A stretch of DNA of 64,000 nucleotides from NCBI GenBank assembly GCA_903836515.1, contig CAILQW010000040.1:34207-98206 (forward strand), given 5' to 3'. This document shows positions 37,416 through 56,732 of this stretch, one piece after another. This DNA is from Candidatus Omnitrophota bacterium (GTDB taxonomy: Bacteria > Omnitrophota > Gorgyraeia > Zapsychrales > Fredricksoniimonadaceae). Position numbers and translations under genes: made by a program. A model generated the notes under the pieces. That model was not told the DNA's origin, searched no databases, and saw only the letters and a list, made by a program, of their open reading frames with translations. Numbering within the stretch: position 1 is the stretch's first letter; every line of letters starts with the position of its first letter.

Positions 37416-39662
37416 CTACGCTGCTGAAGCTGCCAACCCTCCTGCCTCAGTGAACAATGGCACACCCACAGCAGATTGAATATTCAAAATGACTGGCACA
37501 AGCCCATCAATACGGATATTATCCAGATTCTGCTGGCTGACCGGCAAAGGAACGCCCTTGCCATCACGCCTGATCTGCATATTAAGGTTGGCCTGGGCGA
37601 AGTCAATACCGCCTGTAGCATTATCAACTTTTTGATATACAGCATTCGCAGACAATCCAGTAACAATCTCTCCAAGTTGAGCCTGAATCCAAGGATTTTG
37701 AACCCATTGATCTCCTATAAAAAACAATAACCCTTGCTCACTATTTTGAACAAATGAATCATTCAATGCTGTTAACCCCTTATCATCCTTGGCAAATAAC
37801 ACTTTTAACATTTGTTTCGCTTGGAAAGCATTCCACACGAGATCTCCCTCTCTCAATAAACCCGTCATAATCGGTTCCAACAAACTGCTTTTTTCCGGAT
37901 GAGCGTACATTTGAAGACGTGTAAATAATAACAACCCGGCCCGGCTCTGCATATTCGGATCTTGTAATTCATTTAGCGCCTGTTCATTCCCCAAAAACAA
38001 CTCCTTTAGTATCATCTTCGCATCTGCCAGGGATAACTGATACTCTGTCTGTGAAATAGTAGTTTCGGGAACCTCAGGATTGGCGAGAATCTTAGTAGCA
38101 ACCATCATCCCAAAGGGAAGCTTGGCATGATCTGGTTGCAAAAATGCGGCGCTATAAAACACCCCTGACTCATAAACCAAAAGTAATAGTCCTAAAGAAA
38201 TAGTCTTTACTGACCTTTTAATCTTATTACGCCAATCAAACAAATTGTTCCCTTGTGCATTATCTAAGAATAAAACCGCATTATCTATTCCTTTTTGAAG
38301 GAAAAAAGTATCACTAATATCAGAATTTATAAGAACTTCCGTAACAACCATCATTCCCAAAGGAAGTTTAGAATGGTCTGGTTGTAAGAACGCCGCGCTG
38401 TATGAAACCGCCGACTCATAGGCCAAAAGCAACACACCTAACGAGGTTGTTAAAATTGACCTTTTAATCTTATTGCGCCAATCAAATGAATTATTCCCTT
38501 GTGAATTGTCCGCGACATTATTAAAAGAAGTTTCAACAACATCAGCCTTTAAGAAAACTTTGACCACATTTTCTGCGGTTTCCTTAGAGCTCTTGACTTT
38601 GATCACAAGGTGCGCATTATCATAAACCAGCCCCATGGCCATATCACCACCGGAAAAATATTTGCGCGGGATGACTTCCTGGGAAAATCGGCTCACATCT
38701 TCCCTGATCATGTTAAAGGCACCCTTGCGAAATGCGGTGGTGTACTTTTCGTAAATTTCCTGGTTGGCTTGAGGATCCTGATCAATACCTTTGACCTTGG
38801 ACTTGTCGCCGTAAACTTTATTCAGGATCGATTCTTTAAGCGCGCGCTTATACCAGGCGGCCAACAACATGCTGTTATGGATCTGACGCAAGGGAGCAAA
38901 ATTCCGGCCCTCGTTGACTTCCTTTTCAATGGCCGGAAGGATCACCTCACGCATTACATCTTTGGATATCCGGGCAGCTTTGGTATCGTTCTCTGTCTCT
39001 CCAACGCCGAGGCCATTCTCTTGCATGGCACGGTAATCACTCTCGAGCATGACCTTTAAATGATGCTCCAGCACAACTACGGCAGACCCTTTCTCAAATA
39101 TGACAGCCCTGTCGGGCATGATCCAGACCTTGTTAAAGGTGTCGCTGGGAATATCCGTTGTGCCAAATTTCTGGTAGGATTTCGCGTAAACAGCATCCCA
39201 GAATTTCTTGCCGAGATCCGTATCCGGATTCGTCAACGAGGCAGAGATCTGCTTCAGCATGTAATCCTGGGCCAAAACATCCCGCCCCATTTCCGTCAAA
39301 CCATAATCATCCGGAATAATGCGATCTTTTTCATACGGCGAAAGGTTAACCCACTGATCCTTGTCAGGAATAGCCAGGGCGGCGAGAAAATATTTGATCA
39401 GTTTGGAATATTCTTCCTGCTTTTGTGCGCTGGTCATCAGCTCATCGCCGCGATGAACGATGAAATCAAACTTGAAGGGATCATTGGGATAAATGACCAT
39501 GCCGCGCAAATGAGCTGGCGTGAAGGCCGGTGTCAAGGTTGCCATCGTACCTGGCAAAGGCATAAGCCCTACGGCTGAAATGCTTTGCGCAAACCCCTGC
39601 GGAGGCATGATGCAGCTAAAAATAAAGCTGATCAGCACGAAAAATGATATGATCTTTTTCAT
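37416..39662 (-). CDS. Secreted 748-aa protein of unknown function containing an internal tandem duplication (two hydrophobic-helix-containing ~55-80-aa repeats).
   Basis: Signal peptide MKKIISFFVLISFIFSCIMPPQGFAQ. Repeats: NNSFDWRNKIKRSILTTSLGVLLLAYESAVSYSAAFLQPDHSKLPLGMMVVTEVL and NNLFDWRNKIKRSVKTISLGLLLLVYESGVFYSAAFLQPDHAKLPFGMMVATKIL. It lies between the giant gene and tadC on the same strand. Confidence 0.7.
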   Translation of the reverse strand: MKKIISFFVLISFIFSCIMPPQGFAQSISAVGLMPLPGTMATLTPAFTPAHLRGMVIYPNDPFKFDFIVHRGDELMTSAQKQEEYSKLIKYFLAALAIPDKDQWVNLSPYEKDRIIPDDYGLTEMGRDVLAQDYMLKQISASLTNPDTDLGKKFWDAVYAKSYQKFGTTDIPSDTFNKVWIMPDRAVIFEKGSAVVVLEHHLKVMLESDYRAMQENGLGVGETENDTKAARISKDVMREVILPAIEKEVNEGRNFAPLRQIHNSMLLAAWYKRALKESILNKVYGDKSKVKGIDQDPQANQEIYEKYTTAFRKGAFNMIREDVSRFSQEVIPRKYFSGGDMAMGLVYDNAHLVIKVKSSKETAENVVKVFLKADVVETSFNNVADNSQGNNSFDWRNKIKRSILTTSLGVLLLAYESAVSYSAAFLQPDHSKLPLGMMVVTEVLINSDISDTFFLQKGIDNAVLFLDNAQGNNLFDWRNKIKRSVKTISLGLLLLVYESGVFYSAAFLQPDHAKLPFGMMVATKILANPEVPETTISQTEYQLSLADAKMILKELFLGNEQALNELQDPNMQSRAGLLLFTRLQMYAHPEKSSLLEPIMTGLLREGDLVWNAFQAKQMLKVLFAKDDKGLTALNDSFVQNSEQGLLFFIGDQWVQNPWIQAQLGEIVTGLSANAVYQKVDNATGGIDFAQANLNMQIRRDGKGVPLPVSQQNLDNIRIDGLVPVILNIQSAVGVPLFTEAGGLAASAA
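38095..38510. repeat. In-gene tandem direct repeat: two ~160-bp copies at ~38101-38258 and ~38347-38505, period ~246 bp, roughly 75-80% identical.
   Basis: Seen directly: accatcatcccaaagggaagcttggcatgatctggttgcaaaaatgcggcgctataaaacac... versus accatcattcccaaaggaagtttagaatggtctggttgtaagaacgccgcgctgtatgaaaccgc... Both end with cttttaatcttatt(a/g)cgccaatcaaa. Confidence 0.7.
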
Positions 39663-39881
39663 CTCTTAGACCTCTTGGGATTTAAAATCACAATGAAAAT
39701 AGAAACAATGGTGAGTATCAACGATTTTCACCTTGTGTAACTATACAACATACTTTATACAAAAAACAAGTATAAATGTCATCAAACACCATTTTACAGC
39801 GTTATGACAAAAAGGCGCTATTCAACTATTAATTGAATAGCGCCTTCACAAAGAACCAAAATGCTGCCTGCAGGGTATCCC

Positions 39882-40787
39882 TTAAGACCCACCTGCCATA
39901 TTTTTCAACGGATTATTGTACATAAAATCAAGGAAGATCGGCGCGCCGACCAAGATACCAACTACTGGAAAAATACAAAAAAGGAGCGGCATTAACATCT
40001 TTAGCGGCGCCTTAAGGGCCATGGCCTCACCCCTGCGATAACGCGCCATACGCATGTCTTCGGAAAGAATGTTCAGGGCCTCACTTACAGACGTCCCCAT
40101 TTTATCAGCCTGGATCAAGGTCCTGGAAAATGTCGAAAGGTCGGGGATCTCGTACTTTTTCGCCAGATCGCGCAGGGCATCACGCCGCGGCTTACCTACG
40201 TTGATCTCCTGCAGGACGTTATTCATTTCGCTCAAAAGAAACGACGGACTTGATTTTTCGACCACCCACTTGAGCGCCATCATGAAGTCGAGCCCCGCAT
40301 TTACGCAAAGGCCCAACAGGTCCACCGTATCGGGTAACTGTTTAACAATGCTTTCCTTCGCCTTCTTGATCTTGCCGCGCAGCCAGAATTCCGGCAGAAA
40401 ATACGCCCCCCCGATCGATACCAGAAACCCAAACATCAACAGATCCTTGTTCAAAAAAGTAAAAGCTGTGTAAAAAAGAAAAATAAACAGGATTTCTTTG
40501 ATCAGCAGGAATTCTTCGGGAGAAATGCCTGTATGCGATACCGATATATTTTTCAGCATGTTCCGGCGCATGTCCTGGTTAATCAAGGGCTTGTTTAAAA
40601 CCGACATTCCCCGCAAAAAGGAAGAAACCAGGGATTTGCGCTCTGTCTTTTTTTTGGTCTGCTCGGAAGAAACGACCCCAAAATCATGCATTTTCAATGT
40701 CGGCCTGGCATCAAGGACATCCATCTTGACACCCATCACCACAAGCATCCCGCAGGCCACAATAAAAATAAACGCGATCGTCAGCAT
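39882..40787 (-). CDS. tadC: Flp pilus assembly inner-membrane platform protein TadC (GspF/T2SF family).
   Basis: 301 aa and multi-TM with the T2SF-like architecture. It lies immediately downstream of its paralog tadB (10-nt gap). Confidence 0.75.
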   Translation of the reverse strand: MLTIAFIFIVACGMLVVMGVKMDVLDARPTLKMHDFGVVSSEQTKKKTERKSLVSSFLRGMSVLNKPLINQDMRRNMLKNISVSHTGISPEEFLLIKEILFIFLFYTAFTFLNKDLLMFGFLVSIGGAYFLPEFWLRGKIKKAKESIVKQLPDTVDLLGLCVNAGLDFMMALKWVVEKSSPSFLLSEMNNVLQEINVGKPRRDALRDLAKKYEIPDLSTFSRTLIQADKMGTSVSEALNILSEDMRMARYRRGEAMALKAPLKMLMPLLFCIFPVVGILVGAPIFLDFMYNNPLKNMAGGS

Positions 40788-40796: not shown

Positions 40797-41654
40797 CTAA
40801 TCATTGAACGAACTGATCTTGATGATCAAAAATGTGCCCAGCAGCCACAGCCCGATAGAAACCATCATGAGCATCCGGCCAAGCTCGGTGGTGATCATGA
40901 CCTGAAAATATTTGGGATTGGTGGCATTGACCATAACAAAGAATGCCACCGGAAGACCGCTCATGACCGCCGCCTGCAATTTTCCCTGCACCGTCAATAC
41001 CATCAGATTTTCCTCAATTTTGCGCCGCTCGCGAATGGTCCCGACGATCCTTGAAAAAATAAGGGGAAGATTGCCGCCCGTTTCACGCGAAAGAAGGATG
41101 GCGCTGACCATCTGCTGCATGGCCGCGGAAGCCATTCTCTTGTACAAACGGTTCAACGCCTCATCAAAAGAGACACCCATTTTATTTTCACCCAGCACGA
41201 TCCCGAATTCATGACGGATGGGATCGGGCATTTCTTCAACCACCGCTTCCATGGACTGCACCAGGCTCATGCCGCCCCGCAGGGAACTGGACATGATCAT
41301 GAGCGCGTCAACAAGCTGGACATCAAATTGCTGTTTACGTTTTTTAAGAAGGCTCCCGGCATAAAGCCTGGGCAGGATCAGCCCTACCACGAATCCGCCC
41401 AAAAGCCCCGCGAAACGAAATTGCGTATCAGAAAAAAACATAAAACCCAGCACGGCGCAAATGAACGGGGCGATAATATACAAACGCTGGACAGCCTGGA
41501 TGTCTTCGGCGATCATGGAGCGGTCCATTTCGCGCGCAAAGTCCCTGGCGCGCTTCTGGTTCATTTCATGAACGCCTCTGACCGTGACAGGGATCACAAA
41601 ATAAACGCACAAGACCGCACATACAAAGATCAGGATAAAAATGACAGGAAGCAT
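40797..41654 (-). CDS. tadB: Flp pilus assembly inner-membrane platform protein TadB (GspF/T2SF family).
   Basis: 285 aa. An N-terminal TM precedes a cytoplasmic helical domain (ALMIMSSSLRGGMSLVQSMEAVVEEMPDP...GENKMGVSFDEALNRLYKRM) and C-terminal TMs. Confidence 0.75.
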   Translation of the reverse strand: MLPVIFILIFVCAVLCVYFVIPVTVRGVHEMNQKRARDFAREMDRSMIAEDIQAVQRLYIIAPFICAVLGFMFFSDTQFRFAGLLGGFVVGLILPRLYAGSLLKKRKQQFDVQLVDALMIMSSSLRGGMSLVQSMEAVVEEMPDPIRHEFGIVLGENKMGVSFDEALNRLYKRMASAAMQQMVSAILLSRETGGNLPLIFSRIVGTIRERRKIEENLMVLTVQGKLQAAVMSGLPVAFFVMVNATNPKYFQVMITTELGRMLMMVSIGLWLLGTFLIIKISSFND

Positions 41655-41669: not shown

Positions 41670-42005
41670 TTATGGTTGGTTGCTGCAGGCTGCCTGACAG
41701 CCTGTCTTTACCCCGTCAACACACGCCCGATAGTCGGCCGCTCGCTTGCACGGCAGGACTGCGTTATTATAACAGGCCTGCGCGTACCACACATTCAATT
41801 GATCATCATACGCGCACTCAATGGTCGCATCGGGATTATACTGCCGTAAAAACCCGAAAGTCTCCGACACCTTGCGGTACTGCCCCTGCAATCCCCGCTG
41901 GATATAACTGCGAAAAGAAAAAACAACCGCCAATACAATAATGATCAGCACCACATACTCAAGCATGGCGAACGCTTTCTCTTGTTTCCAACAGGCCCCT
42001 GGCAT
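41670..42005 (-). CDS. Flp-type (class III signal peptide) pilin paralog with a Cys-rich C-terminal extension.
   Basis: Start taken at MMGAAMPGACWKQEKAFAMLEYVVLIIIVLAVVF. AFAMLEY fits the [GAS]-x4-E-[YF] Flp processing motif followed by a hydrophobic helix. The C-terminal half has 8 Cys (ECAYDD...QACYNNAVLPCKRAADYRACVDGVKTGCQAACSNQP). The longer ORF-track start at 42143 is rejected. Confidence 0.55.
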   Translation of the reverse strand: MPGACWKQEKAFAMLEYVVLIIIVLAVVFSFRSYIQRGLQGQYRKVSETFGFLRQYNPDATIECAYDDQLNVWYAQACYNNAVLPCKRAADYRACVDGVKTGCQAACSNQP

Positions 42006-42016: not shown

Positions 42017-45000
42017 TCATTGGCTGCAGCATTCGGAACAACGACGAAATGTCATTTGCATCTTGTTGCCGGATATAAAATATCTGGCGCAGGTTTCCGA
42101 AACAACCCCCTTGCTCAACAAAGCCTCCGCCGCATTGTAACATTCGATCAACGGCCCTGGCATGGAAGACTCCAGGGGTAAATTGATCATGAAAGCTTCA
42201 TTCAGATTGTCCTGTGTCATGATGGCCGCGCTGGTATCTTCCAAACGGACATAACTGTTGGTCACATTCCCCGCGGCATCCCGTTCCGATTTACGGCTGT
42301 AATGGTTCTCGATGCAATTGCGGTAAATATCCGATACATTATAACCCACATCGGTATTCCTGTTGTGCGGATTACGGTAAAGAATTTGCCAGATAGGTAA
42401 TCCGCTTAACAACTTCAAAACCCCGCCCTGCGCTGGATCATGATCCTCGTCATATCGGATCACCCGGGTGCCCACACAACCATCCGCATCCGAAATCTCA
42501 TAACAACGCGTCATGCTCAAAATGCCTTCCGTATACGTTCTGATCCACGGGAATGTATTGGTACAGGTATTAAAACCCGCCCCTCCGTGTTTGGGGATAG
42601 CCGCTTCCACCTTGACCAGATGCAAATAACCCTTTCGCGTCGCCGCATTCGATGTGTTCCACGCGCCTGGCCGCGGGGAAAGCCAGCCATAAATGACCTG
42701 GTTGCCCAAATGAGGCGCCGCCGCGATCACGGCATCAATGGAATTGACCAGCCCGATGATCTGTTGGCCTTTACCCGCAATATCATCATGCGCTTTCTGC
42801 AACACAGGCAGAAAATCTTTCATGTGCTGGAGAAGATCTCTCAAATAAGCCGCACGGGCCTTCATTTTGATGCTTTGATTGACCGCCAACGTGGCACTGT
42901 TGGAAATTTTCTTGATGTAATCCGCTGAACACGTGCCCGCGGCAACGTTACGGCCCAAATCATTATTAGGATCAAATCCAGGAACAAGCGACCGGGGAAG
43001 ATCCTTGCACGCGGCCGCGGCAACACAGGCCGTTGGGTTGGCGCTCAAAGCGCCCGCACACGCCGCAAAAGCCTGATTCAAATTGCTGTTGTAATCCAGA
43101 CAACGCAGGACGCTGTCCACAGACCCCCAGGGCGATGGGGTCGCCAGGATATAATTCTTTTCTTTCGCGGTCATGGTGGTCAAGTCCGTCGGTAAACACC
43201 ACGCATTGGCATCTGTATACGGCCCCTTCAACCACGTGTTGATCTCATCGATCCAGCGCTGCATGCGCGCTTCCATCTTGCCCAGCTCCATCCCCTGGGC
43301 AATGACCGCAGCTTTCCAGGCCGCCACAGAATACGCCAATTGCGCCTGTGTGGCCGGATTTGTCGTCAATAACGGCGTTACCGTCTGCAAGAAATACGCC
43401 ATGCCGGTTGACATGGCATCAAAACCATCGTCATACCAGAGATCCTTGTGATCCACATTGGGACACATGCAATTGGCCGCAATAGCAGCCGGAGCACCCG
43501 CCGCATTGCAAACGCCAACGGGCTGGGATGAAGACCCCTGCTCCATTTTCACCGGATAAACAATATTGCTTGAGGGGTCCTGGAACGTATCCGAATAACG
43601 GTCAGCGCCCTTTTTCCATAACAGTTTCGTTCCTGCCTCTACCGCCGGATCCCGTGCACAGTCGCTATCTGCCACAGGCCTGAATGATTCAATGTCCGGG
43701 ACCACATCCAGTTTAAAATTGGAATAACTTAACGAACTGCTCACATTGTTATTGAAGGTATTCACACAACAATCTTCACCCACACAGGTTGGCAATGACA
43801 GCTGATCATATGCCGTCGTCCCCGCAGGACGGAAAAGGAGGCGTGTCGGGGTGGGCGGCGGTGAAAAAGGCGGCGTTGTCAGCGAACAGGGCGTGACGCG
43901 CTTGTCACACCAGTGACAACCCGGCGCTTCGGCACGCATGTCTGCGGCATTGATATCCTTTAACATCGGCGCCGTATCCGCCAACAGCCACAAGAACGGG
44001 AATATCTTGCCCGTGCTGTCCGCGCCGCGGAATATCGGCATCCAGGGATCCGGTATTTCCGCACCGGCAGAAAAATATTTTTTCTTGTTGGCATCATCCA
44101 TGCCCATCACGCTCAGGAAAGACGTGCTGACGTTCTTTTGAACATAAAGTGGATCATACGCATAACAAGCGGTCAACTGGTTCGCAGAAGGCGCACAGCC
44201 GGGAGCGCTCAAGCACTCCTGAGGTACCAACTCCGGCTTTTTAGGATCCAGGGAACAGGCCGCAGGCCGCATCGTCGGATCCGTACAACACGGATTGCAT
44301 TGCGGCCTTAACTGCGGACCAGTGCCCAGGTCAACATAACATACCGCCGGATTGCCGCCAGAAAGCCCCAGCGCATCCACAACGCCCTGTAACGTCTGGC
44401 GCAAGGTATCGATCGCCGTGGTGGGCGGTAACGGTATCCCCCGCATCCGGTCTGTGTAATAAAAGGCGAACCGCGAAACCTTGGCGGCAGGATCCCCCTT
44501 CTGAGGGTACTCCCGGATATACCAATGCGTGTTCCCATCAAGATCCCAACGGTCTGTCACCAGCACCGGATCCCCTGTTGCCAGATTCAAGGCGGTGCTG
44601 ATCCCGTTCTCCAGATACTTATCTTCAATGGTGGGCAGGTTCTTCTGCCATTTATTCCACATCTTTGTCAGGCCCGGCTGAACCACGGTTACCTGCAACA
44701 CAATGGCGGCAACGGCCAGTCCAATGGAAATAGCCGCCACCGTCCCTGCAGAAAGCCCCATGGCACTACCAGCGACCTCCCCAGCCCCAGGAATCACACA
44801 CGTAAGAACAACAATCGCCACCAAGGCAATGATGGCCGCCAAAACACCCGTAAACCCGCATTTTTTAGCTTCTCCACCCAACTGTGTCTGGATCAGATTC
44901 TCGCCATAACCAGCCATGAGCGAAACAAGCGCTGCCGCAGCACTGTTGGAGGCAATGGTCACCGTTGTCTTCGTTGACGCGATCCTGGACCAGTTGATGG

Positions 45001-45079
45001 TCACGGCGTACAAAACAAAGGCGACAGCAACCATCAGGATCACAACAAGGGACATTTGTCCTTTACGGGACAGTGGCAT
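42017..45079 (-). CDS. TadG-like pilus-associated protein, 1020 aa, with a very large Cys-rich extracellular domain (candidate tip adhesin).
   Basis: N-terminus GQMSLVVILMVAVAFVLYAV...SNSAAAALVSLMAGYG resembles the TadE/TadG N-terminal (Tad) domain. Additional TM/Gly-Ala helices follow, then ~800 aa with >40 Cys (e.g. CNPCCTDPTMRPAACSLDPKKPELVPQECLSAPGCAPSANQLTACYAYDP) ending in RRCSECCSQ. It is embedded in the tad operon. Confidence 0.55.
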   Translation of the reverse strand: MPLSRKGQMSLVVILMVAVAFVLYAVTINWSRIASTKTTVTIASNSAAAALVSLMAGYGENLIQTQLGGEAKKCGFTGVLAAIIALVAIVVLTCVIPGAGEVAGSAMGLSAGTVAAISIGLAVAAIVLQVTVVQPGLTKMWNKWQKNLPTIEDKYLENGISTALNLATGDPVLVTDRWDLDGNTHWYIREYPQKGDPAAKVSRFAFYYTDRMRGIPLPPTTAIDTLRQTLQGVVDALGLSGGNPAVCYVDLGTGPQLRPQCNPCCTDPTMRPAACSLDPKKPELVPQECLSAPGCAPSANQLTACYAYDPLYVQKNVSTSFLSVMGMDDANKKKYFSAGAEIPDPWMPIFRGADSTGKIFPFLWLLADTAPMLKDINAADMRAEAPGCHWCDKRVTPCSLTTPPFSPPPTPTRLLFRPAGTTAYDQLSLPTCVGEDCCVNTFNNNVSSSLSYSNFKLDVVPDIESFRPVADSDCARDPAVEAGTKLLWKKGADRYSDTFQDPSSNIVYPVKMEQGSSSQPVGVCNAAGAPAAIAANCMCPNVDHKDLWYDDGFDAMSTGMAYFLQTVTPLLTTNPATQAQLAYSVAAWKAAVIAQGMELGKMEARMQRWIDEINTWLKGPYTDANAWCLPTDLTTMTAKEKNYILATPSPWGSVDSVLRCLDYNSNLNQAFAACAGALSANPTACVAAAACKDLPRSLVPGFDPNNDLGRNVAAGTCSADYIKKISNSATLAVNQSIKMKARAAYLRDLLQHMKDFLPVLQKAHDDIAGKGQQIIGLVNSIDAVIAAAPHLGNQVIYGWLSPRPGAWNTSNAATRKGYLHLVKVEAAIPKHGGAGFNTCTNTFPWIRTYTEGILSMTRCYEISDADGCVGTRVIRYDEDHDPAQGGVLKLLSGLPIWQILYRNPHNRNTDVGYNVSDIYRNCIENHYSRKSERDAAGNVTNSYVRLEDTSAAIMTQDNLNEAFMINLPLESSMPGPLIECYNAAEALLSKGVVSETCARYFISGNKMQMTFRRCSECCSQ

Positions 45080-45093: not shown

Positions 45094-45342
45094 TTATTTC
45101 TTATATAGCAATGTATCCATTGTCCGAACCTCGTGAAAATTCGGATTCACCTGCTGTTCTGTGGTCAAATTCTTGTTGCTCAAGATCGCATCATGATCAT
45201 ACCGCCGTTCCGCCATATCCATCATGCCCCAGCGAAAAACCTCGATCATGCCATAAACGATCAACGACAGGGCGATCATGCCTGCCGTAAATTCGAGGAT
45301 GCTCTGGGCTTTGTTTCTTTTATTAAAAAACACCATGCTCAT
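45094..45342 (-). CDS. TadE-like minor pseudopilin (82 aa).
   Basis: KRNKAQSILEFTAGMIALSLIVYGMIEVFRW matches the TadE-like N-terminal hydrophobic domain. Its start overlaps the upstream gene stop by 4 nt. Confidence 0.6.
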   Translation of the reverse strand: MSMVFFNKRNKAQSILEFTAGMIALSLIVYGMIEVFRWGMMDMAERRYDHDAILSNKNLTTEQQVNPNFHEVRTMDTLLYKK

Positions 45343-48143: not shown

Positions 48144-48213
48144 AAACTTCCCTTATTGAAAAATAAAACCAGGAAGGGCGCATGAAGACCCTTCCTGGTT
48201 CATCATTGACCCA

Positions 48214-48547: not shown

Positions 48548-48925
48548 TTAGTAACCACTGGCGGCTTCACCACTGAGCGCGCTATTGGATGCACTAACAG
48601 TATTCTTGTTGTAATTTGTCGTATCGACATAGCCCGCGGCCCTCTTGGTGCTGATGGTCGTATCAAGCTGTTGGTCTATGGTCTGCTCTTTCTTTGAGCC
48701 TTTGTCTGTCTGTGCGCTTGTATTGGTATAATACGGCTCATACTGCAGGGTATTGCCGATCTCCGTGGTGCTGTCACGGAACATCACGCTCGCATCACGC
48801 AAGCGGCCCTGCAACGTGCGCTGAGCATACGTCTGCATGGCGATAACACCGCCAACAACCAACGCGATCAAAATCGCATATTCGGCGGTATTTTGAGCCT
48901 TTTTGTTTTTAAATAATTTTAACAT
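48548..48925 (-). CDS. Flp-type pilin paralog.
   Basis: Start MLKLFKNKKAQNTAEYAILIALVVGGVIAMQTYAQRTLQGR. Confidence 0.7.
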   Translation of the reverse strand: MLKLFKNKKAQNTAEYAILIALVVGGVIAMQTYAQRTLQGRLRDASVMFRDSTTEIGNTLQYEPYYTNTSAQTDKGSKKEQTIDQQLDTTISTKRAAGYVDTTNYNKNTVSASNSALSGEAASGY

Positions 48926-49006: not shown

Positions 49007-49195
49007 TTAATGCGAATTTGACAAACGATCCGAGAATTTAGCCATTGTATCAACACCGTCTCCCAGTGTCGCATTCAATGTCTTGCGAAACGGCGAATCC
49101 GGTTTTACAACAAGACCAATAATAATGACGATAACCGCGGTGACCAAAAGCACATATTCCAGCGTGCTTTGACCCTTTCGATGACATCTTGACAT
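49007..49195 (-). CDS. Flp-type pilin paralog (62 aa).
   Basis: MSRCHRKGQSTLEYVLLVTAVIVIIIGLVV... GAGGAGG RBS lies 5-6 nt upstream. Confidence 0.7.
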   Translation of the reverse strand: MSRCHRKGQSTLEYVLLVTAVIVIIIGLVVKPDSPFRKTLNATLGDGVDTMAKFSDRLSNSH

Positions 49196-49220: not shown

Positions 49221-49379
49221 TTATTCTGCCTTGAATTCCTCGGTCATTTCTTTTTGCTTCGACTGGACAGCACGATACACATAAGTACTCATCGCAACAG
49301 CTGCTGCCGAGATGATGGCAACGACAAGGGCGTATTCCACCACGTTTTGACCTTTGTTACGAAACTTCAATAACCCCAT
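49221..49379 (-). CDS. Flp-type pilin (52 aa); below the ORF-track length cut-off.
   Basis: The reverse-strand translation reads MGLLKFRNKGQNVVEYALVVAIISAAAVAMSTYVYRAVQSKQKEMTEEFKAE. AAGGA lies 7 nt upstream of the ATG (complement of 49377-49379). It is first in the pilin array and nearest the upstream promoter region, so it is a candidate major pilin. Confidence 0.65.
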   Translation of the reverse strand: MGLLKFRNKGQNVVEYALVVAIISAAAVAMSTYVYRAVQSKQKEMTEEFKAE

Positions 49380-49683
49380 CGCTGTTCCTTATGTATTTTA
49401 AAGAAACGCCGCCCGGGACCCTGTGAAAAAATATAATATCAGGGTGGGAATTCATCCCGAGCCTCTATGTTGACTGTGGTCACCCACGTCAACCCGGTCC
49501 AGTCCATGCCATCCCCTGGTTCCGGTGATATTCCGTTATAAAAACGGAACTATGAGACCTCCTGTGTAAGCATTTTTAAGCACACGCAAAATCTGTAAGA
49601 GTATAACATGTATAAAGATGCTGTCAATGTTAGGTCCAGGGGTTTTAATGCATATTTCCATGGATGAGGGGCAAAGAATAGGC

Positions 49684-51525
49684 CTAAAGGGATGCTTTTT
49701 CAATTGAAAAATGCCATCTTTTGTTGTGGTGCTCTTCAAATATATTGCTATTTATTCTATTAATTAGGGTTTCGACCTGTTGTGTATAAGAAAACCCTTC
49801 AGGAAGGATCAACCGGATGAGAGCAAGACCTTGCCGTTGCTGAAAATAACCGGAAAGACAATAGAGCGACTGTAAAATGCCGTGATCTTCTATATCTAAA
49901 AATTTATATTTAATATATTCTTCAAAAATATGTACTAATTTTTGTAATGTAAACTTTTTAGTTCCATCCTCTTCATTATGAATTGATTTATTCAGTGTTT
50001 CTTGAATGTATTTTTTTGTTTTATTATCATTATCTTCTATTTTAAAATTTAATAACTTTGCTAAATTATCATTTATTATGCTAGTTACTGTGTGATTTTC
50101 ACTCTCTATATTTGTCAAAAAAATAATTTTCTTTTCTTTTCCCTGTAGAGAAACAACAACAGCGCGTAAAACATCAGCCTCTCCATCCATCGGCGTGAAA
50201 CGATAGGAGCCCCCTAAAATGTTATATTTCTTATCTAATATTGAATTGTATATGGATTGAGGATTTTTTATCACTTCAAATTCTATGTTTTCAAGCGAAA
50301 ATTGCTCCTCATCAAAACCTGCTATAAAACAAATCTTCCGCCCCGCCTTGATATCAGATTCCCATATTAAATTATTGTTTTTCCCCCACAAAGAAATTTT
50401 TTCCGGGTTTTCAGCTCCAGAACCATTTAAAACAGAGATCATTTTTCTGACGGCGGGAACAAGACCTTGCGGGCAATTGAAAACAAGCGGTTTTATGGGG
50501 AAAACCACACGATCAACCGCGTCATCTATAGCCTTAATCATCGGGAAAGAGGATCCCGTTGGTGCTGTCTCAAATATCTGGGTAAGATCATCACTCAAAA
50601 AATAATTATGGCCGCCATTGGTCTTAATACAAAAATATCCATTCTTAAGAAAAACGAGCTCTAGCTCTGCTTCAATCGCTGCCCTGAAAACTATAGATGT
50701 AAAATCTTTCTCTAAAAATTGTTCTAGCGACGCCTGGCCTTTCTTACGATCAAGATCAAGCAAGGTCCACACAACATCAGAACTTACGGCATGGGCATCA
50801 ACCATCCCGCCTCGGCCCAACGCTGTGAACAAAATAACAGCTTCCAGCATTCTAGCGTTCGCTACCGTCTGACGACCATCCTGAGACAAAAAGGTCGAAA
50901 CCATCGGCCGCCGTAAACTATCTGACAAAACCGCTTCAAGAAACGCGATTCCCATATTTTCAAATATTGGCCCTTTTTCACCCGACCAGAAAAATTCATC
51001 TTTTAACGGGACAAAATCTATAGGGCGTTCCTGGGTGAACTGGCCTATTGACAAGCTGTTCCTCAACCGATCTGGTCCAAGTTTTAATAGTTCGGGGATA
51101 TCTTCAAAAAAATCATCGGATTCATCAGGATTTAACATATCGGCTTGCGTTATAACCTGATGGCCTTCTGTTTGCACTTCTGCCGGCAACTCAATTCCCT
51201 TCCCATTTTCAGAAAGATCCCCCTCAGTGGTACTACAGGGCACTGGCTGAACAATGTTAGCATCCGGAAGAAACGGAATAACTTGGGCTAATAATTGATC
51301 TTTTTTATCTTTGGGAATATAAAAATTCTGGGAAGGTTTGCGACCGACTGGACTGCTAAGCTTATACTCTTTGATAACCGCATTAATCGAAGATTTTGAA
51401 ACTTCTATGTGAAATACTTCTTTTAATAGTGCTGCAATTTTACGACAGCTTAACGATGGGTCATTTTTTTTCTTTTCTACAATGACTTGAACAACTTCTT
51501 TTTTTAATTTGTATATCACGCCCAT
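49684..51525 (-). CDS. 613-aa protein with an N-terminal HTH, encoded by a compositionally distinct (low-GC) segment; unknown function, possibly a horizontally acquired regulator or mobile-element protein.
   Basis: N-terminus LSCRKIAALLKEVFHIEVSKSSINAVIKEY is HTH-like. The 3' half (forward coordinates ~49700-50400) is strongly AT-rich and Lys/Asn/Ile-rich, unlike all flanking genes. It interrupts the tad locus between the tadZA-DUF192 genes and the flp array. Confidence 0.5.
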   Translation of the reverse strand: MGVIYKLKKEVVQVIVEKKKNDPSLSCRKIAALLKEVFHIEVSKSSINAVIKEYKLSSPVGRKPSQNFYIPKDKKDQLLAQVIPFLPDANIVQPVPCSTTEGDLSENGKGIELPAEVQTEGHQVITQADMLNPDESDDFFEDIPELLKLGPDRLRNSLSIGQFTQERPIDFVPLKDEFFWSGEKGPIFENMGIAFLEAVLSDSLRRPMVSTFLSQDGRQTVANARMLEAVILFTALGRGGMVDAHAVSSDVVWTLLDLDRKKGQASLEQFLEKDFTSIVFRAAIEAELELVFLKNGYFCIKTNGGHNYFLSDDLTQIFETAPTGSSFPMIKAIDDAVDRVVFPIKPLVFNCPQGLVPAVRKMISVLNGSGAENPEKISLWGKNNNLIWESDIKAGRKICFIAGFDEEQFSLENIEFEVIKNPQSIYNSILDKKYNILGGSYRFTPMDGEADVLRAVVVSLQGKEKKIIFLTNIESENHTVTSIINDNLAKLLNFKIEDNDNKTKKYIQETLNKSIHNEEDGTKKFTLQKLVHIFEEYIKYKFLDIEDHGILQSLYCLSGYFQQRQGLALIRLILPEGFSYTQQVETLINRINSNIFEEHHNKRWHFSIEKASL

Positions 51526-51622
51526 AGTTTTTTGTCCATTCTGGACATTTCCACTATACCATGAAGAACAAAGATATCAATCAAGGATTGCGAAAAATTA
51601 ACCTTTTATTCATTATAACTTT

Positions 51623-51967
51623 TTAAGAAACAATCTGCATTTGATCGCCCAACGATGTTTTAGTCCGCTCAATGGTGCCGGTGGGAAGCTCTAAGACCTT
51701 GTCTGCTTTCCAAAAAATAGGGCTGAGTTGATTGGGCTTAATATGCCTCACCAACCCAACAACGTGACTATTGCGGTCAAGGAATACAGCATCAATCGCA
51801 AATTTCATAAAAAACATATGGATTGAATTGCAGTGCGTAATAATGAGACATTGTCCGTCCTTAAATGATGGTACTCCCAAAAGACCACGTGCACGCGTGA
51901 AAAAAGTATCCGCAAGCCATGCCTCCAGAGAAAGGACATTGTTATTCGTAAGATTTTTTATGATCAC
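51623..51967 (-). CDS. DUF192 (COG1430) family protein.
   Basis: 114 aa. Conserved-looking blocks ARGLLGVPSFKDGQCLIITHCNSIHMFFMKFAIDAVFLD are typical of DUF192. It overlaps the upstream tadZ-tadA stop (coupled). Confidence 0.5.
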   Translation of the reverse strand: MIIKNLTNNNVLSLEAWLADTFFTRARGLLGVPSFKDGQCLIITHCNSIHMFFMKFAIDAVFLDRNSHVVGLVRHIKPNQLSPIFWKADKVLELPTGTIERTKTSLGDQMQIVS

Positions 51968-54141
51968 TGGGCAGGAACACTCTTGTGCGGCAGGAACATT
52001 TCTTCTTTAAGCTCAACCCCGCGCTTGACAATATCTTCAAAACATTGGGGGATATAACCGGTTGGTCGGAATTCACCTAAAACACGTCCAGATTTATCAA
52101 GTCCCTGATGTTCGAAAACAAAAATATCTTTAAGTTCAGGTAAACCATCCACAAGATTTCCGGTTACTTCCGTTATGGCCGTAATTTTGCGTGTCCCATC
52201 GGAAAAACGCGAAACCTGAACGACAATATCGATCGAAGAAGCAACCATTTCATAGACCGCACGCAACGGAAGTTCTATCCCGCTTAAAAGCATCATGGAA
52301 TTCAAGCGCGTGATGGCGTCACGCGTTGAATTGGCGTGCAACGTGGTCAATGAACCATCATGGCCCGTGTTCATGGCCTGTAACATATCCAAAACCTCGG
52401 CACCACGACACTCACCGATAATGATGCGGTCAGGACGCATACGCAGGGTGTTCATGAAAAGATCCCTGATCAGTATCCCTCCTTTGCCCTCGACGTTAGG
52501 CGGGCGGGACTCAAGCCTGGCCCAATGGGACTTGTTAAGCTTTAACTCAGCCGCATCCTCAATAGAAATGATACGTTCTCCGTCGGGGATATACTCGGAA
52601 ATAATGTTAAGGAGTGTCGTCTTGCCGGAACCTGTCCCTCCGGAAACGATCATGTTCTTGCGCACAACGACTGCGGCCCGGATGAATTCAGCCATGGCCG
52701 GCGCCAAACTCTTGAATCGCCGCAAAAGATCGTCCATCCCATAACGGTCCTGGCCAAACTTCCTGATGGTGATCATGGGTCCGCGCAAAGAAAGCGGAGG
52801 GATGATCGCATTAATACGCGACCCGTCAGGAAGACGCGCATCCACCATGGGCACAGATTCATCGATACGCCGGCCCAGCGGCGCAATGATGCGGTCAATC
52901 ACAGAACGTACCTGCTGATTTGACACAAACCGTTTATTGGTATGAATAATCTTGCCGCTCTTTTCAACGTAAATTTCATCCTTGTTATTGACCATGATAT
53001 CTGTCACGTCCGGGTCAGCCAGCAATTCCTCAAGGGGCCCGAGGCCAAGGGCCTCGTTCACAATATCTGTAACAAGTTTCGCACGCTCCTGATGCGAAGA
53101 AACAAGGGCCCCGGACTCTTCTGCCAACAAATTAACAATGATCCGTTCCGCCTGTTTCTTGATCTGCGCCGACTGCTCAGGATCTGACAAGGCTTCGGGG
53201 GTGATGGCCTGAAGGTTCATCCGCTCAATCAGTTTTTCATGGACCCTCTTTTTAAGAAGGATGGCCTCATCTTCATCTTTTTTGACTGTATACTTGGCCT
53301 GGACCGCGGCCATTTTTTCATTAATGCCGAACTTTTCCCAGAAATTATCAGCCGTGGCTTCCTCGGTGGCACGGACCCGGATGACTTCCGTGGTATTGAC
53401 ATAAATACTTTCGTTCTCAAGATCCTTGGTCAGCTGCATGAACGCCAGGGAAACCTTGGCTTTGGGATTATCCACAACAACCGGAATACCCCTGTTAAGG
53501 GCCATCCCGACGACTTTACCGTCAGAGGGCACACGTGAAATGATGTCGCATGTCAGGGCGTCTTTCACTTCCTGCCAGGCGACACCCCCGTGACTTTCAG
53601 CGCGATTAAGCACAAGCTTGATCATCTTCAACGGAAAGTGTTCGCTTTGGAGAATTTCCATGCCCCACTTGATCTGATACACCGAAAGGATGTCCGGTGT
53701 GGCAACCAGAAGAATAAGGTTGGAGATATCCAGGATCGACATCAGCGTTTCTGTAAATGTCTTTCCCACGTCGACAATAATATAATCGTAATGCGGGGAA
53801 ACTCTTTTGAAGAAAAGCTTCACGTTATCCGGCGTAATATGGCCCATCTGGCGGATATTGGTGACAGCCGTGATAAAATCAAGGCCCGACGAATGGGTGA
53901 TCATGAATTTCCTGACATCAACAGCCTCTGTTGATTTTTCCATCTCAGGAAGGACTTCAACAATAGATTGATCCGGCGCCAGATTCAGCATCCGCGCCAT
54001 ATCCTGTCCGGACTGAAAATCAAGATCAACAACCAGTGTTCTTTTGCCCGATAAAGACAACGCAACGGCTGTATTGACACAAACAAATGTTTTGCCAACA
54101 CCGCCTTTATTGCTGAAAACCGTGATTATTCTTGCTGACAT
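51964..54141 (-). CDS. tadA: Fused TadZ(CpaE)-like MinD/ParA ATPase domain + TadA/CpaF secretion ATPase (725 aa).
   Basis: The first ~260 aa, ARIITVFSNKGGVGKTFVCVNTAVALSLSGKRTLVVDLDFQSG...DYIIVDVGKTF, form a deviant-Walker-A ParA/MinD fold as in CpaE/TadZ. The C-terminal ~450 aa carry the CpaF/TadA VirB11-like core (IVSGGTGSGKTTLLN...ISIEDAAEL...RMRPDRIIIGECRGAEVLDMLQAMNTGHDGSLTTLHANS). Confidence 0.8.
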   Translation of the reverse strand: MSARIITVFSNKGGVGKTFVCVNTAVALSLSGKRTLVVDLDFQSGQDMARMLNLAPDQSIVEVLPEMEKSTEAVDVRKFMITHSSGLDFITAVTNIRQMGHITPDNVKLFFKRVSPHYDYIIVDVGKTFTETLMSILDISNLILLVATPDILSVYQIKWGMEILQSEHFPLKMIKLVLNRAESHGGVAWQEVKDALTCDIISRVPSDGKVVGMALNRGIPVVVDNPKAKVSLAFMQLTKDLENESIYVNTTEVIRVRATEEATADNFWEKFGINEKMAAVQAKYTVKKDEDEAILLKKRVHEKLIERMNLQAITPEALSDPEQSAQIKKQAERIIVNLLAEESGALVSSHQERAKLVTDIVNEALGLGPLEELLADPDVTDIMVNNKDEIYVEKSGKIIHTNKRFVSNQQVRSVIDRIIAPLGRRIDESVPMVDARLPDGSRINAIIPPLSLRGPMITIRKFGQDRYGMDDLLRRFKSLAPAMAEFIRAAVVVRKNMIVSGGTGSGKTTLLNIISEYIPDGERIISIEDAAELKLNKSHWARLESRPPNVEGKGGILIRDLFMNTLRMRPDRIIIGECRGAEVLDMLQAMNTGHDGSLTTLHANSTRDAITRLNSMMLLSGIELPLRAVYEMVASSIDIVVQVSRFSDGTRKITAITEVTGNLVDGLPELKDIFVFEHQGLDKSGRVLGEFRPTGYIPQCFEDIVKRGVELKEEMFLPHKSVPAQ

Positions 54142-54150: not shown

Positions 54151-55884
54151 TCAATTATGTGTTGCGACATTCTTAAGGAATGAATCCAAACTGTACACAA
54201 TAGAAACAACGATCTGCGTCTTATCTGACTGAGCAGACTGGGGCGGCGCTGAATAAGGCGCAAGGATTTGTGCGGTATTGACCGCATCCTGATCAAACAC
54301 CTTATACCCTGAAGATTCCTTGACCTTTACATCCTTAAGCGTGCCTTCTTTATCAAGGGTCAGGGCAAGTTTGACCGTTCCCTGCCAATTCTTTTCCTGA
54401 GCTTCGTACGGATACGCGATGGCAGACGCAATTTTGTTCTGGATCGTTAACGCATAATTTTCAAGCGCGGTCGCACCGGCCACAACCGGCGGCTTGACGG
54501 CCTCAATGGGCTTTGACGCAACGCCAGTTGCGGATGCAGGCGCCACCACAGCAGCCTTGACCGGAAGCCTGGCTTCAATTTTTTGTTCGGGCAGCTTGGT
54601 CTCTGAAGTTATATCCGCACTTTTCCCTGAACGTAAAATCGTGGGTGTAATGGAAATTACAACTTCTGTTTCCTCATTGGCCACCGGTGTCTTGGTGCTT
54701 CGAAAAAGCATCCCGACCACCGGGATACGGCTCATGAACGGAACACGCCGGACCAATTCATTGTCCCGGCGCTTGATCATCCCGGCCAAAACAATCGTTT
54801 GCTTATCTTCCAGCAAAAGCTGGGTATTAGCAGAACGTGTCAAGAACGCCACATCCGTTCCTGTGGGTTTAGAGGTATCAATTTCACTGATCTCGGCATG
54901 CAAAAGGATATTGACCAAATGGCCCGCCTGAATGGACGGCGTGATCGCCATGCTGACGCCATACTCTTTAAATTCCACGTTTTGCTGGGTCGAACCGCCG
55001 CTGGCACTGGTTGTTGTGGTCTTGATGGGGATTTCACCGCCCACCAGGAATGTGGCCTCTTTGCCGCTGATGACAACAAGGCGCGGCTTGGAAAGGACTT
55101 TCGCCTTCCCTTCCTGGATCATGGCATTGATCGCCGCAATCAGGGCATTCGTGCGGCTAAAATCACCAACTTTCCAGAGGTCCTTGAAAGAACCGTTGCC
55201 CTTGGGAATAGATATTGACGATGGCAGGTTTTCCTGATAATTGGCGGTCAAATCGCTGGTCGCAGTCCCCGTCCCCCAATCCACACCCATAGCTTTTGTG
55301 AGTGTTGTTGAAAGTTCGGTGATCTGCATGTCAATCTGGATCAAATCCTCGATCTTTTCTTTTTGAACAAGATTAATAACACGGTCGGAAAAAGGCTCTA
55401 TCACTTTAGTCAGCACATCCATCTTCTCTTCGGTCAGACTGCCTGTGATAACAACCTTGCCTTCATCCGCATTTTCATTGAGCGTCACCCCGAGCACGCC
55501 CGCCCCTGTCAGCAAGCTTTGGACTCTTTTTTTGACAAGCCCGGTGTCCTCCTGAACAACACGGATGACAACCGTGCGCTTACCGCCGTCATCCCAGATA
55601 AACAGGATTGTTTGTCCTGCCTCAATGCCGATCACGTCGACGGCGTCGGCACGGGCATCATTGATATCCGCCACCACAGGATCGGTGATGGAAACACGTT
55701 TCAAATTTTTGGCAGGAATGCTTTGAATGTCTCCCTTTAAAACCTGAATCTCTTCATAGGCGCGCGTCGAAGGAACAACGGGCGCCGCCCAAAGAGCGGC
55801 CGGCGTCCCGCCCAAAAGAAAAGCGGCAACACCCAGCAGCATCAACGGGGTTTTCATGATTTTAAACAAAAAAAACGTGCCCAT
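54151..55884 (-). CDS. cpaC: CpaC/RcpA-type secretin with an appended C-terminal TonB_C-like domain.
   Basis: Signal peptide MKTPLMLLGVAAFLLGGTPAALWA. N-terminal pilus-formation (BON-like) domain. The secretin core is VVISGKEATFLVGGEIPI...VLAGMIKRRDNELVRRVPFMSRIPVVGMLFRSTKTPVANEETEVVISITPTILR. The last ~100 aa (AIAYPYEAQEKNWQGTVKLALTLDKEGTLKDVKVKESSGYKVFDQDAVNTAQILAPYSAPP) match the TonB C-terminal domain pattern (YP..A...eGtV.l.f.i...G.v.dv.v..SSG...lD.aA). Its start overlaps the cpaB stop by 1 nt. Confidence 0.8.
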   Translation of the reverse strand: MGTFFLFKIMKTPLMLLGVAAFLLGGTPAALWAAPVVPSTRAYEEIQVLKGDIQSIPAKNLKRVSITDPVVADINDARADAVDVIGIEAGQTILFIWDDGGKRTVVIRVVQEDTGLVKKRVQSLLTGAGVLGVTLNENADEGKVVITGSLTEEKMDVLTKVIEPFSDRVINLVQKEKIEDLIQIDMQITELSTTLTKAMGVDWGTGTATSDLTANYQENLPSSISIPKGNGSFKDLWKVGDFSRTNALIAAINAMIQEGKAKVLSKPRLVVISGKEATFLVGGEIPIKTTTTSASGGSTQQNVEFKEYGVSMAITPSIQAGHLVNILLHAEISEIDTSKPTGTDVAFLTRSANTQLLLEDKQTIVLAGMIKRRDNELVRRVPFMSRIPVVGMLFRSTKTPVANEETEVVISITPTILRSGKSADITSETKLPEQKIEARLPVKAAVVAPASATGVASKPIEAVKPPVVAGATALENYALTIQNKIASAIAYPYEAQEKNWQGTVKLALTLDKEGTLKDVKVKESSGYKVFDQDAVNTAQILAPYSAPPQSAQSDKTQIVVSIVYSLDSFLKNVATHN

Positions 55885-56732
55885 TAATTGGCCCCCCTTC
55901 CACTTTTATAAATCTGAATCGCGGGTCCCGACGGGGAAGGTTCGGCTTCAGAATCCTTCTTGGAGCTGTCTGACACATTAAGATCAGCACCCGTATTTTG
56001 TAAAACATATTCCGCCAGGGTTGACCAGGTGGCGGCGGAAATCATGGCCGGCTTCTTCTCATTGGGCGAGCGCAGGGCCAGTTCAATTTTTCCGTTCTTT
56101 TCCGCGAATGACAAAAGACTTGCCTCTTCCGGCGTCACCGCAAAGGTGATCTTCAGGGAACGATCCTTTTGCTGTTCATCATACACACCGGGCTGATCAA
56201 TGTTTGTATTAATAGCGAGGATCTGAAGATTCTGAAAAATCATCGCGGTAACCGCTTCTTTTTTCTCTTTTTCCTTACCGGCAAAAGCCTCTGTCTTTGG
56301 CATGCTCAACTGGGCAATAACATCCACATAATCGCCAGGGTTAAGAAGACCGCCAACAGCCCCCAACGACTCGATCATGACGGTGATCGCACGCTTCCCG
56401 GCCGGCATCCGCAATGCCAGGGACACAGCCTTGCGTTCCTTCTTGGCATCCTGCCCAAGACGGGCCTGCTCTGTAGCGGCCTTGGCCGCATCCTGGGCCG
56501 CCTGCTGTGCGCGCTGCTCGACCTGGGAGATCTTTTGATTCAGCGCGCCCAGATCCTGTTTATACATCTCGTCCCGTTGTTTTTGCTCTTTCTGGAACTT
56601 GCGGGCGATCTTGTCCGTCTGCTCATTGATCGAACTTTGCACAAAATTACTGACCAAAAAAGCGGCAACAAGACCCGTACCTACGGCTGCAATCAGTACA
56701 AAGAATTGTTTCTTATTTTCCATCAATGCCAT
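55884..56732 (-). CDS. cpaB: Flp pilus assembly protein CpaB/RcpC.
   Basis: 282 aa. N-terminal TM (FFVLIAAVGTGLVAAFLVSNFV), a coiled-coil linker and a SAF/CpaB-type beta domain (RAITVMIESLGAVGGLLNPGDYVDVIAQL). Confidence 0.75.
   Translation of the reverse strand: MALMENKKQFFVLIAAVGTGLVAAFLVSNFVQSSINEQTDKIARKFQKEQKQRDEMYKQDLGALNQKISQVEQRAQQAAQDAAKAATEQARLGQDAKKERKAVSLALRMPAGKRAITVMIESLGAVGGLLNPGDYVDVIAQLSMPKTEAFAGKEKEKKEAVTAMIFQNLQILAINTNIDQPGVYDEQQKDRSLKITFAVTPEEASLLSFAEKNGKIELALRSPNEKKPAMISAATWSTLAEYVLQNTGADLNVSDSSKKDSEAEPSPSGPAIQIYKSGRGAN

Follow-up and report, generated by a model that had tools for sequence, protein, structure and literature searches.

The locus described here is an enlarged Tad (type IVc, Flp) pilus cluster lying directly upstream of, and co-oriented with, a giant gene in the genome of a Candidatus Omnitrophota bacterium. 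The DNA analysed, referred to throughout as the window, is a stretch of 64,000 nucleotides (nt) from contig CAILQW010000040.1 (assembly GCA_903836515.1, positions 34,207 to 98,206). Omnitrophota are abundant, uncultured and ultra-small, are thought to be predators or parasites, and the longest predicted proteins known are theirs; the chief genomic hint at their way of attaching to other cells and attacking them is a Tad-type machine linked to a giant gene. All genes but one between 15182 and 63972 are on the minus strand. Reading down from 56732, these are CpaB/RcpC, a CpaC-type secretin, a TadZ-TadA fusion, DUF192 and a 613-amino-acid (aa) low-GC (guanine plus cytosine) helix-turn-helix (HTH) gene, followed by seven small pilin genes (47132-49379), three prepilin-like genes of 596, 82 and 1020 aa and a Cys-rich Flp-like gene, and finally TadB, TadC, a 748-aa protein and the giant gene of 7,270 aa. 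Families were assigned with Pfam and NCBIfam models, against which all large open reading frames (ORFs) of the window were scanned. A preliminary description made from the letters alone had placed the Tad locus upstream of and in line with the giant gene; this is borne out on the minus strand, and its gene order and coordinates agree with the ORFs and, for the core, with the Pfam and NCBIfam matches. The core genes and those between the core and the giant are as follows.

56748..57686, minus strand: PpiC/SurA-like peptidyl-prolyl isomerase with a lipoprotein-type signal, LAMAGC (Rotamase_2 PF13145, E 5.9e-23)
55884..56732, minus strand: CpaB/RcpC (PF16976, E 2.3e-24; TIGR03177, 98.6 bits against a cut-off of 71)
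54151..55884, minus strand: CpaC/RcpA-type secretin (PF00263, E 6.5e-42; PF13629; PF03544)
51964..54141, minus strand: TadZ fused to TadA/CpaF ATPase, 725 aa (Pfam)
51623..51967, minus strand: DUF192 protein (PF02643, E 7.2e-18)
49684..51525, minus strand: 613-aa HTH protein (weak HTH_32 and Tc3 matches)
40797..41654, minus strand: TadB, one T2SSF domain (PF00482, E 9.4e-16)
39882..40787, minus strand: TadC, one T2SSF domain (PF00482, E 2.4e-14)
37416..39662, minus strand: 748-aa protein with a signal peptide (large Omnitrophota paralogous family)
15182..36994, minus strand: giant gene, 7,270 aa (ORF)
36035..36877, minus strand: conserved N-terminal module of the giant, aa 40-320 (helix, motif and C39)

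The pilus cluster is a genuine enlarged Tad-type cluster, with an order that recurs in dozens of related loci, far beyond chance. Linkage to the giant was followed by scanning a TadC alignment against one genome per species, which gave 80 loci, each with flanks of up to 10 kb, 41 of them with the full 10 kb 3' of tadC. In 36 of these 41 species-representative loci, tadC is followed in the same orientation by a homologue of residues 1-400 of the giant, at a distance of 0.3-5.8 kb (median ~0.9 kb) that in relatives is always at least 290 nt. Across all 80 loci, 47 of the 49 giant-homologue frames ran to the end of the retrieved DNA without meeting a stop, over up to 3,250 codons. The reverse direction gave the same picture, as all three proteins with the N-terminal module (3/3) directly follow tadB-tadC. 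A second scan, anchored on the HTH gene, recovered ~22 long metagenome loci with the upstream order mdh-ppiC-cpaB-cpaC-tadZA-DUF192-HTH-pilins-large pilins-tadB-tadC, and the conserved order through to the giant N-terminal module is also seen in 36 genome loci. The preliminary description had called for adjacency to be checked in related genomes; the genes proved linked in 36 of 41, and a general separation of giant and tad genes was not found. Its suggestion that the two form a putative functional unit is supported by conserved synteny only; the same linkage has been published.

Broad conservation within the giant is limited to aa 40-400. Within it are a single, strongly hydrophobic membrane helix (aa 48-68), the motif F-x-P-x-Q-x-SWAFNYNP, which is invariant, and, at aa 150-295, a C39 peptidase for which the Pfam model scores above its cut-off and the papain-like C39 fold is matched; the triad of Cys165, His250 and Asp266 is kept in 96-100% of 50 sequences. 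A word-indexed search for homologues of the giant N-terminus yielded no more than 11 proteins, all truncated; an exhaustive profile search, used in its place, found the module in 188 clusters at E<=1e-30, always N-terminal and in proteins of up to 7,820 aa. Beyond the module the giant gave no family matches and no internal repeats. Its composition varies along its length, being rich in Gly, Ser, Thr and Asn at aa 760-2580 and in Glu, Lys and Gln at aa 3250-4400, and there is a Walker A/P-loop-like AMAGGKTK at aa 4463-4470 with DEIH at aa 4562. A SecA-DEAD-like domain is reported for most giants in West-Roberts 2023 (bioRxiv 10.1101/2023.11.21.568195) but is not confirmed for the present one: the region has no sequence match in Pfam or PDB, and AMAGGKTK...DEIH is not tied to SecA.

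The core machine is of Tad type. In the TadZ-TadA fusion, ParA/MinD-like domains (aa 3-247) make up the TadZ half and the TadA/CpaF half spans aa 330-704, with a T2SSE match at aa 365-642 (E 1.8e-58). The ATPase half scores 387 bits (E 1.3e-114) against solved CpaF versus 126 bits (1e-35) against archaeal FlaI, and its best NCBIfam match is a TadA-family model. The fusion is conserved, appearing as a single full-length match of 50-76% identity in ~25 related loci, and the secretin carries a C-terminal TonB_C domain (aa 489-566) that is likewise spanned by the matches in ~25 related loci. Neither the secretin-TonB_C nor the TadZ-TadA fusion is mentioned in the accessible parts of the published descriptions of the locus. 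The DUF192 start overlaps the tadZA stop by 4 nt, and DUF192 directly follows tadZA in all long related loci. The conserved locus opens with the PpiC-type isomerase, which lies immediately 5' of cpaB in ~20 related loci; a lipoprotein, it heads the locus in place of a TadD-type pilotin. Classification as a type II secretion system (T2SS) was rejected in favour of Tad, given GspE model scores of 40-49 bits against cut-offs of 617-630 and a platform split into two single-domain proteins; furthermore, Pfam and NCBIfam models found no GspC, GspL or GspM equivalents among the window proteins.

The 613-aa HTH gene has a GC content of 0.376 against ~0.50 in its neighbours, as the preliminary description had noted for its low-GC HTH gene. 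Only its ~90-aa N-terminal HTH region is highly conserved, the remainder being fast-evolving. Homologues occupy the same position, between DUF192 and the pilins, in 7 genome loci and ~20 metagenome loci, and GC content is below that of tadZA in 20 of 20 loci. A recent mobile insertion was therefore rejected, because the gene has a fixed position in ~27 related loci and low GC in every locus examined; it could be a regulator specific to the locus, or else a domesticated piece of a transposase, as its N-terminal HTH region resembles transposase HTH domains. The 748-aa gene behaves differently and is a variable insert, not a conserved member of the unit. It belongs to a family with >3,000 matches and several copies per genome, in which conserved N- and C-terminal modules flank a variable middle; no known fold was detectable in its N-domain. 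A role as conserved link between pilus and giant was rejected on three grounds: the gene is at its present position in only 4 of 80 loci, its family is multicopy, and in the closest species, which shares the giant's upstream region, the giant directly follows tadC. The constant parts of the locus are the fused TadZ-TadA, the TonB_C secretin, DUF192, the HTH protein, the pilin set and the C39-headed giant N-terminus, while the variable parts are the giant body and the inserted 748-aa gene.

The fibre components are numerous. Eleven proteins carry a [K/R/N][G/A/S]↓Q-x-x-x-E-[Y/F] signal (the arrow marks the end of the leader) and, after it, a hydrophobic helix; the +1 residue is Gln in ten of them and Phe in the Cys-rich one.

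49221..49379, minus strand: Flp-type pilin 1, 52 aa (motif, leader MGLLKFRNKG↓QNVVEY)
49007..49195, minus strand: Flp-type pilin 2, 62 aa (motif HRKG↓QSTLEY; Class_IIIsignal PF04021, 23.1 bits against a cut-off of 23.7)
48548..48925, minus strand: Flp-type pilin 3, 125 aa (motif NKKA↓QNTAEY; homologues in 35/36 loci)
48214..48528, minus strand: Flp-type pilin 4, 104 aa (motif KSG↓QSVLEY; homologues in 36/36 loci)
47796..48143, minus strand: Flp-type pilin 5, 115 aa (motif TAKA↓QGISAEY)
47457..47786, minus strand: Flp-type pilin 6, 109 aa (motif SRRA↓QSLMEY)
47132..47455, minus strand: Flp-type pilin 7, 107 aa (motif MMKKS↓QSLLEY)
45339..47129, minus strand: 596-aa minor-pilin-like protein, 8 Cys (motif SKNA↓QSIIEL; present in 36/36 loci)
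45094..45342, minus strand: 82-aa minor-pilin-like protein (motif RNKA↓QSILEF; present in 33/36 loci)
42017..45079, minus strand: 1020-aa pilin-like protein, 35 Cys (motif SRKG↓QMSLVV; present in 36/36 loci)
41670..42005, minus strand: Cys-rich Flp-like protein, 111 aa, 7 Cys (motif QEKA↓FAMLEY; present in 36/36 loci)

Eight small proteins have Glu-Tyr at +5/+6 with the Flp-type processing motif (G↓XXXXEY), and the Flp_Fap model scores for pilin 1 only, at 20 bits, below its cut-off of 32.2. Eight flp genes plus a Cys-rich one had previously been counted; the Cys-rich gene stands, but there are seven other small genes (starts at 49379, 49195, 48925, 48528, 48143, 47786 and 47455), making eight with it, and independent gene calls in two relatives also give seven small Flp genes. 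TadE- and TadG-like labels had been given to the larger proteins. The prepilin N-terminal motif behind these labels is present, and the pilin nature of the 596-, 82- and 1020-aa proteins is proposed because of this motif alone, but none of the three matches a TadE, TadF or TadG model or any other Pfam or NCBIfam family; they may do the TadE/TadF/TadG job without membership of those families. Homologues of the 596-aa protein are conserved mostly in the N-terminal 140-320 aa and keep Glu at +5 in 30 of 37 cases. Glu+5 is also kept by homologues of the Cys-rich protein, unlike the 1020-aa protein, which has Val at this position, with I, V, L or M in ~35 of 40 homologues. The T2SS tip pseudopilin GspK is also without Glu5. 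By analogy with GspK a tip position is suggested for the 1020-aa protein, making it a candidate fibre-tip subunit.

From 49379 down to 39882 the intergenic gaps are 25, 81, 19, 70, 9, 1, 2, -4, 14, 11, 15 and 9 nt. An operon had been proposed from gaps of 0-15 nt: the pilin-to-tadC stretch does look like an operon and most gaps are short, but not all fall within 0-15 nt, two of those between pilin genes being 70 and 81 nt. Candidate transcription signals, of which the promoter calls are sigma-70 consensus matches only, are as follows.

51553..51580, minus strand: sigma-70-like promoter match upstream of the HTH gene (10/12, extended -10 TG)
49600..49627, minus strand: best sigma-70-like match of the region (TTGACA-16-TATACT, 11/12, TG)
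48166..48201, minus strand: 14-bp GC-rich hairpin and T-run between pilins 4 and 5 (top terminator-like site of the scan)
39806..39844, minus strand: terminator-like hairpin, 14-bp stem, -19.6 kcal/mol, TTTTTGT, 37 nt after the tadC stop
37350..37388, minus strand: terminator-like hairpin, -15.8 kcal/mol, with TTTCTTTC, after the 748-aa gene

The best promoter-like sites fall in the two larger gaps, upstream of the HTH gene and of pilin 1, with the top match in the 304-nt gap ahead of pilin 1. The hairpin between pilins 4 and 5 may be an attenuator, through which transcripts of pilins 1-4 would be more abundant than those of the remaining operon. A terminator-like site within 200 nt after tadC is found in 36 of 77 related loci, compared with 10-22% of coding control segments. 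The giant is preceded by a 421-nt AT-rich upstream region, in which no riboswitch or other known RNA was found and whose intergenic similarity reaches only the two closest species. Judged by these signals, the giant gene is probably a transcription unit separate from the pilus operon.

Downstream of the giant are two PilZ-domain genes:

13462..13815, minus strand: PilZ-domain protein (PF07238, E 1.7e-12)
13037..13420, minus strand: second PilZ-domain protein (PF07238, E 1.3e-11)

Further downstream are GH94, an ATP-binding cassette (ABC) sugar transporter (SBP_bac_1 and two BPD_transp_1), GH2 and LacI. The only convincing plus-strand gene of the window (14271-15098) lies between the giant and the PilZ genes and encodes a CvpA-like membrane protein, with a Colicin_V match of 26.5 bits, just under the cut-off, and an STI1-like C-terminal repeat.

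This architecture, of which the window is a clean and full example, is real, ordinary for the phylum and already published, and the central observation is not new. In West-Roberts 2023, the locus comprises gspD, gspE, gspF, rcpC, a Rotamase_2 isomerase and many small class III signal peptide genes, followed by giants that often start with C39 and then by pilZ genes, binding-protein-dependent sugar transporters and glycoside hydrolases. Item by item, the parts and their order are those of the window, including the PilZ genes, transporters and glycoside hydrolases; nothing essential differs, and the window adds a gene of the 748-aa paralogous family before the giant. Nielsen & Lui 2026 (bioRxiv 10.64898/2026.06.07.730766) confirm the architecture: of the 14 giants with 80,000 residues or more, 13 have secretion or pilus genes beside them, and a C39 architecture cluster is described there. 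Seymour 2023 (PMC10066038) reports Tad complexes and giant ORFs across the Omnitrophota phylum, expression of the Velamenicoccus archaeovorus Tad complex in co-culture and a 3-fold increase of giant-ORF peptides in attached V. archaeovorus cells. As described there, V. archaeovorus LiM, of the same phylum, resembles the window in having a Tad complex (by TXSScan), a giant ORF and an origin-proximal location, and expression rises on attachment to the archaeal host (PMC10066038); its giant, compared by description, has 39,678 aa and 42 predicted membrane helices, whereas that of the window has 7,270 aa and one strong N-terminal helix. What the present analysis adds is incremental: the identity of the machine as Tad and not T2SS, the conserved fusions, the HTH and DUF192 members and the absent peptidase, together with the giant pilin lacking Glu at position 5, the variable 748-aa insert, the terminators and the origin-proximal position.

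Canonical Tad/Cpa pili (Aggregatibacter tad, Caulobacter cpa) share with the window the CpaF/TadA ATPase, a TadZ-like ATPase, split TadB/TadC, CpaB, the CpaC secretin and short Flp-type pilins with Glu+5-Tyr+6. In contrast to them, the window has TadZ and TadA fused, a TonB_C secretin, eight Flp paralogues (canonically one to three), Gln at +1, very large Cys-rich minor pilins, a different gene order and an attached giant gene, and is without TadV/CpaA and TadD. Archaeal class III signal peptides (PF04021) are similar in that the leader ends [K/R][G/A]↓Q with an acidic +5, and EppA-processed archaeal pilins typically have Gln at +1; unlike the archaeal systems, the window encodes a bacterial CpaF-type ATPase and an outer-membrane secretin. 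Closer in proposed function is the Myxococcus Kil system (Seef 2021, PMC8460266), a Tad-like machine required for contact-dependent prey killing whose effector is unidentified and for which prepilin peptidase is dispensable. Kil is also Tad-derived and without TadD, with many extra genes of unassigned function and an ATPase fused to an extra N-terminal domain; it differs in being split between two clusters, in fusion to FHA and not TadZ, in a short secretin and in having no adjacent giant reported.

The reading favoured here, with moderate confidence, is that this is an Omnitrophota Tad machine which, together with the giant envelope protein encoded downstream, is passed on across the phylum as a single syntenic block and would serve contact with a host or prey cell. 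It is the most economical reading, and its support comes from conserved synteny, the V. archaeovorus expression data and the Myxococcus Kil precedent. Under this reading a fibre would be built and the giant would be surface-exposed, both acting in host or prey contact, with contact and attack as the presumed function. The CpaF-type ATPase, fused to its TadZ partner, and the TadB/TadC platform would polymerise Flp-type subunits through the CpaB/CpaC outer-membrane channel. The seven small Flp paralogues and the Cys-rich one would supply the fibre, the three larger prepilin-like proteins would be minor pilins, and the 1020-aa Cys-rich protein without Glu+5 could form the contact surface at the tip, so that the fibre would attach a very small cell to its host or prey. 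The giant, anchored by its conserved N-terminal helix and C39 module, would be deployed at the fibre's own place in the envelope, where it would bind or attack the partner surface, and the downstream PilZ (cyclic di-GMP-binding) proteins, glycoside hydrolases and sugar ABC transporter may regulate the process and collect its products.

Several observations weigh against this reading. Five of the 41 loci have only ordinary genes downstream, with no giant within 10 kb of tadC. Terminator-like hairpins part tadC, the 748-aa gene and the giant, and co-expression is therefore not implied. Neither the giant nor the large pilins contain an adhesin or hydrolase domain detectable with Pfam or NCBIfam. 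Furthermore, no GxGDxK-type membrane ORF is present in 1.8 Mb made up of the window and ~140 related loci, nor is there an A24 peptidase in the 17.7 kb beyond the window edges; with none in the window, its flanks or related loci, pilin maturation depends on an unseen gene. The preliminary description had seen no TadV/CpaA gene in the window, which the ORF scan and a motif search confirm (no A24 prepilin peptidase among the window ORFs), yet it had called the machine complete. This term does not hold, because the window is missing both the prepilin peptidase and the pilotin, and Pfam found no TadD-type tetratricopeptide-repeat lipoprotein between 37416 and 57698. The conserved order of related loci leaves no empty slot for a prepilin peptidase, and the pilins are presumably processed by one encoded elsewhere, for example a PilD.

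Other explanations of the same synteny have been considered. The Tad-like machine could be mainly a secretion or display device for the giant, working in T2SS fashion with a short pilin piston, the N-terminal module docking at TadB/TadC and the peptidase freeing the giant from its anchor to pass through the secretin. In keeping with this, the module is the only broadly conserved part of hypervariable giants, its gene adjoins tadC, the catalytic triad is intact and the pilin-like set of eleven proteins is unusually large; moreover, the locus is called a secretion system in West-Roberts 2023, and the Kil paper (PMC8460266) does not settle whether a toxin is secreted by its Tad-like machine as well. 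Nevertheless, the ATPase, CpaB and split platform are Tad-type (GspE model 40 bits against a cut-off of 630), GspC, GspL and GspM equivalents were not found in the window, products of at least 7,000 residues would be implausible as folded secretin cargo, and the giant has its own upstream region behind terminator-like sites. Export as the main role is considered unlikely. A broader form, in which the Tad-derived machine would also be a dedicated assembly or export system for giant proteins, with the helix, SWAFNYNP and C39 docking and releasing at TadB/TadC and the eleven-pilin fibre acting as piston or carrier, is speculative and judged distinctly unlikely; if true, it would be a new route for surface placement of proteins of thousands to >100,000 residues. 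Unlike PCAT/ComA-type C39, that of the giant is not fused to an ABC transporter and follows a single N-terminal helix; no ABC domain was found in the giant protein and no double-glycine substrate was identified for the predicted peptidase.

The adjacency might instead reflect a shared, favoured position, origin-proximal and on the leading strand, that suits a very long gene, with no direct functional link. At the origin, rpmH-yidC-jag-parA-parB are on one strand and dnaA-dnaN-gyrB-gyrA-tRNA-Glu-mdh-ppiC-tad-giant on the other; from this dnaA-to-giant order, the pilus and giant genes begin ~9.5 kb from dnaA and are co-directional with replication. A uniformly negative GC skew throughout the window, gyrA or mdh upstream of the locus in several relatives and the terminator-like sites between units are all compatible with this explanation. 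So is the V. archaeovorus Tad locus at 12382-29832 of CP019384.1 (PMC10066038), at 12-30 kb in the genome record, which suggests the same origin-proximal placement. Position alone accounts less well for adjacency that is tight (median 0.9 kb) and holds in 88% of species although TadC is only 52-75% identical across the loci. TadC homologues of 53-75% identity occur throughout Omnitrophota, and sources name several of the homologues TadC (or TadB). Genes between tadC and the giant also come and go while the pairing stays unbroken, and the downstream flank (PilZ, sugar uptake) is conserved as well, according to West-Roberts 2023. Little credence is given to shared position as the whole explanation, and the contact fibre with its giant envelope protein continues to be preferred.

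C39 enzymes cut after Gly-Gly. That the C39 peptidase heading the giant replaces the missing A24 enzyme and matures the Flp-type pilins is scarcely credible and was rejected on topology and cleavage specificity. In its favour, no A24 peptidase is encoded in or near ~140 related loci, and the neighbour of tadC invariably encodes a cysteine peptidase, apparently active by its sequence. Against it, the helix at aa 48-68 is preceded by basic residues, which by the positive-inside rule would put C39 outside the cytoplasm, whereas cleavage of prepilin leaders takes place on the cytoplasmic face. The P2 residue of the pilins is Lys, Arg, Asn or Ser, which does not fit a Gly-Gly site, and prepilin peptidases are promiscuous, making one encoded elsewhere simpler.

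Further observations were made on related records. In JBFWOS010000003.1, from another species, tadC is followed by a 7,820-aa C39-headed protein and then, less than 70 nt further on, by a second gene, of 17,588 aa; some genomes may have tandem giants that start with a C39-headed protein of ~6-8 thousand residues. Candidatus Omnitrophota or Omnitrophica is the name given to homologues of both TadC and the 748-aa protein. Public metagenome-assembled genome records that contain an Omnitrophota-type locus bear, in many cases, the titles 'uncultured Planctomycetales', 'Lysobacterales', 'Gammaproteobacteria' or 'Elusimicrobia', and these titles are probably labelling or binning errors, not a sign of spread to other phyla.

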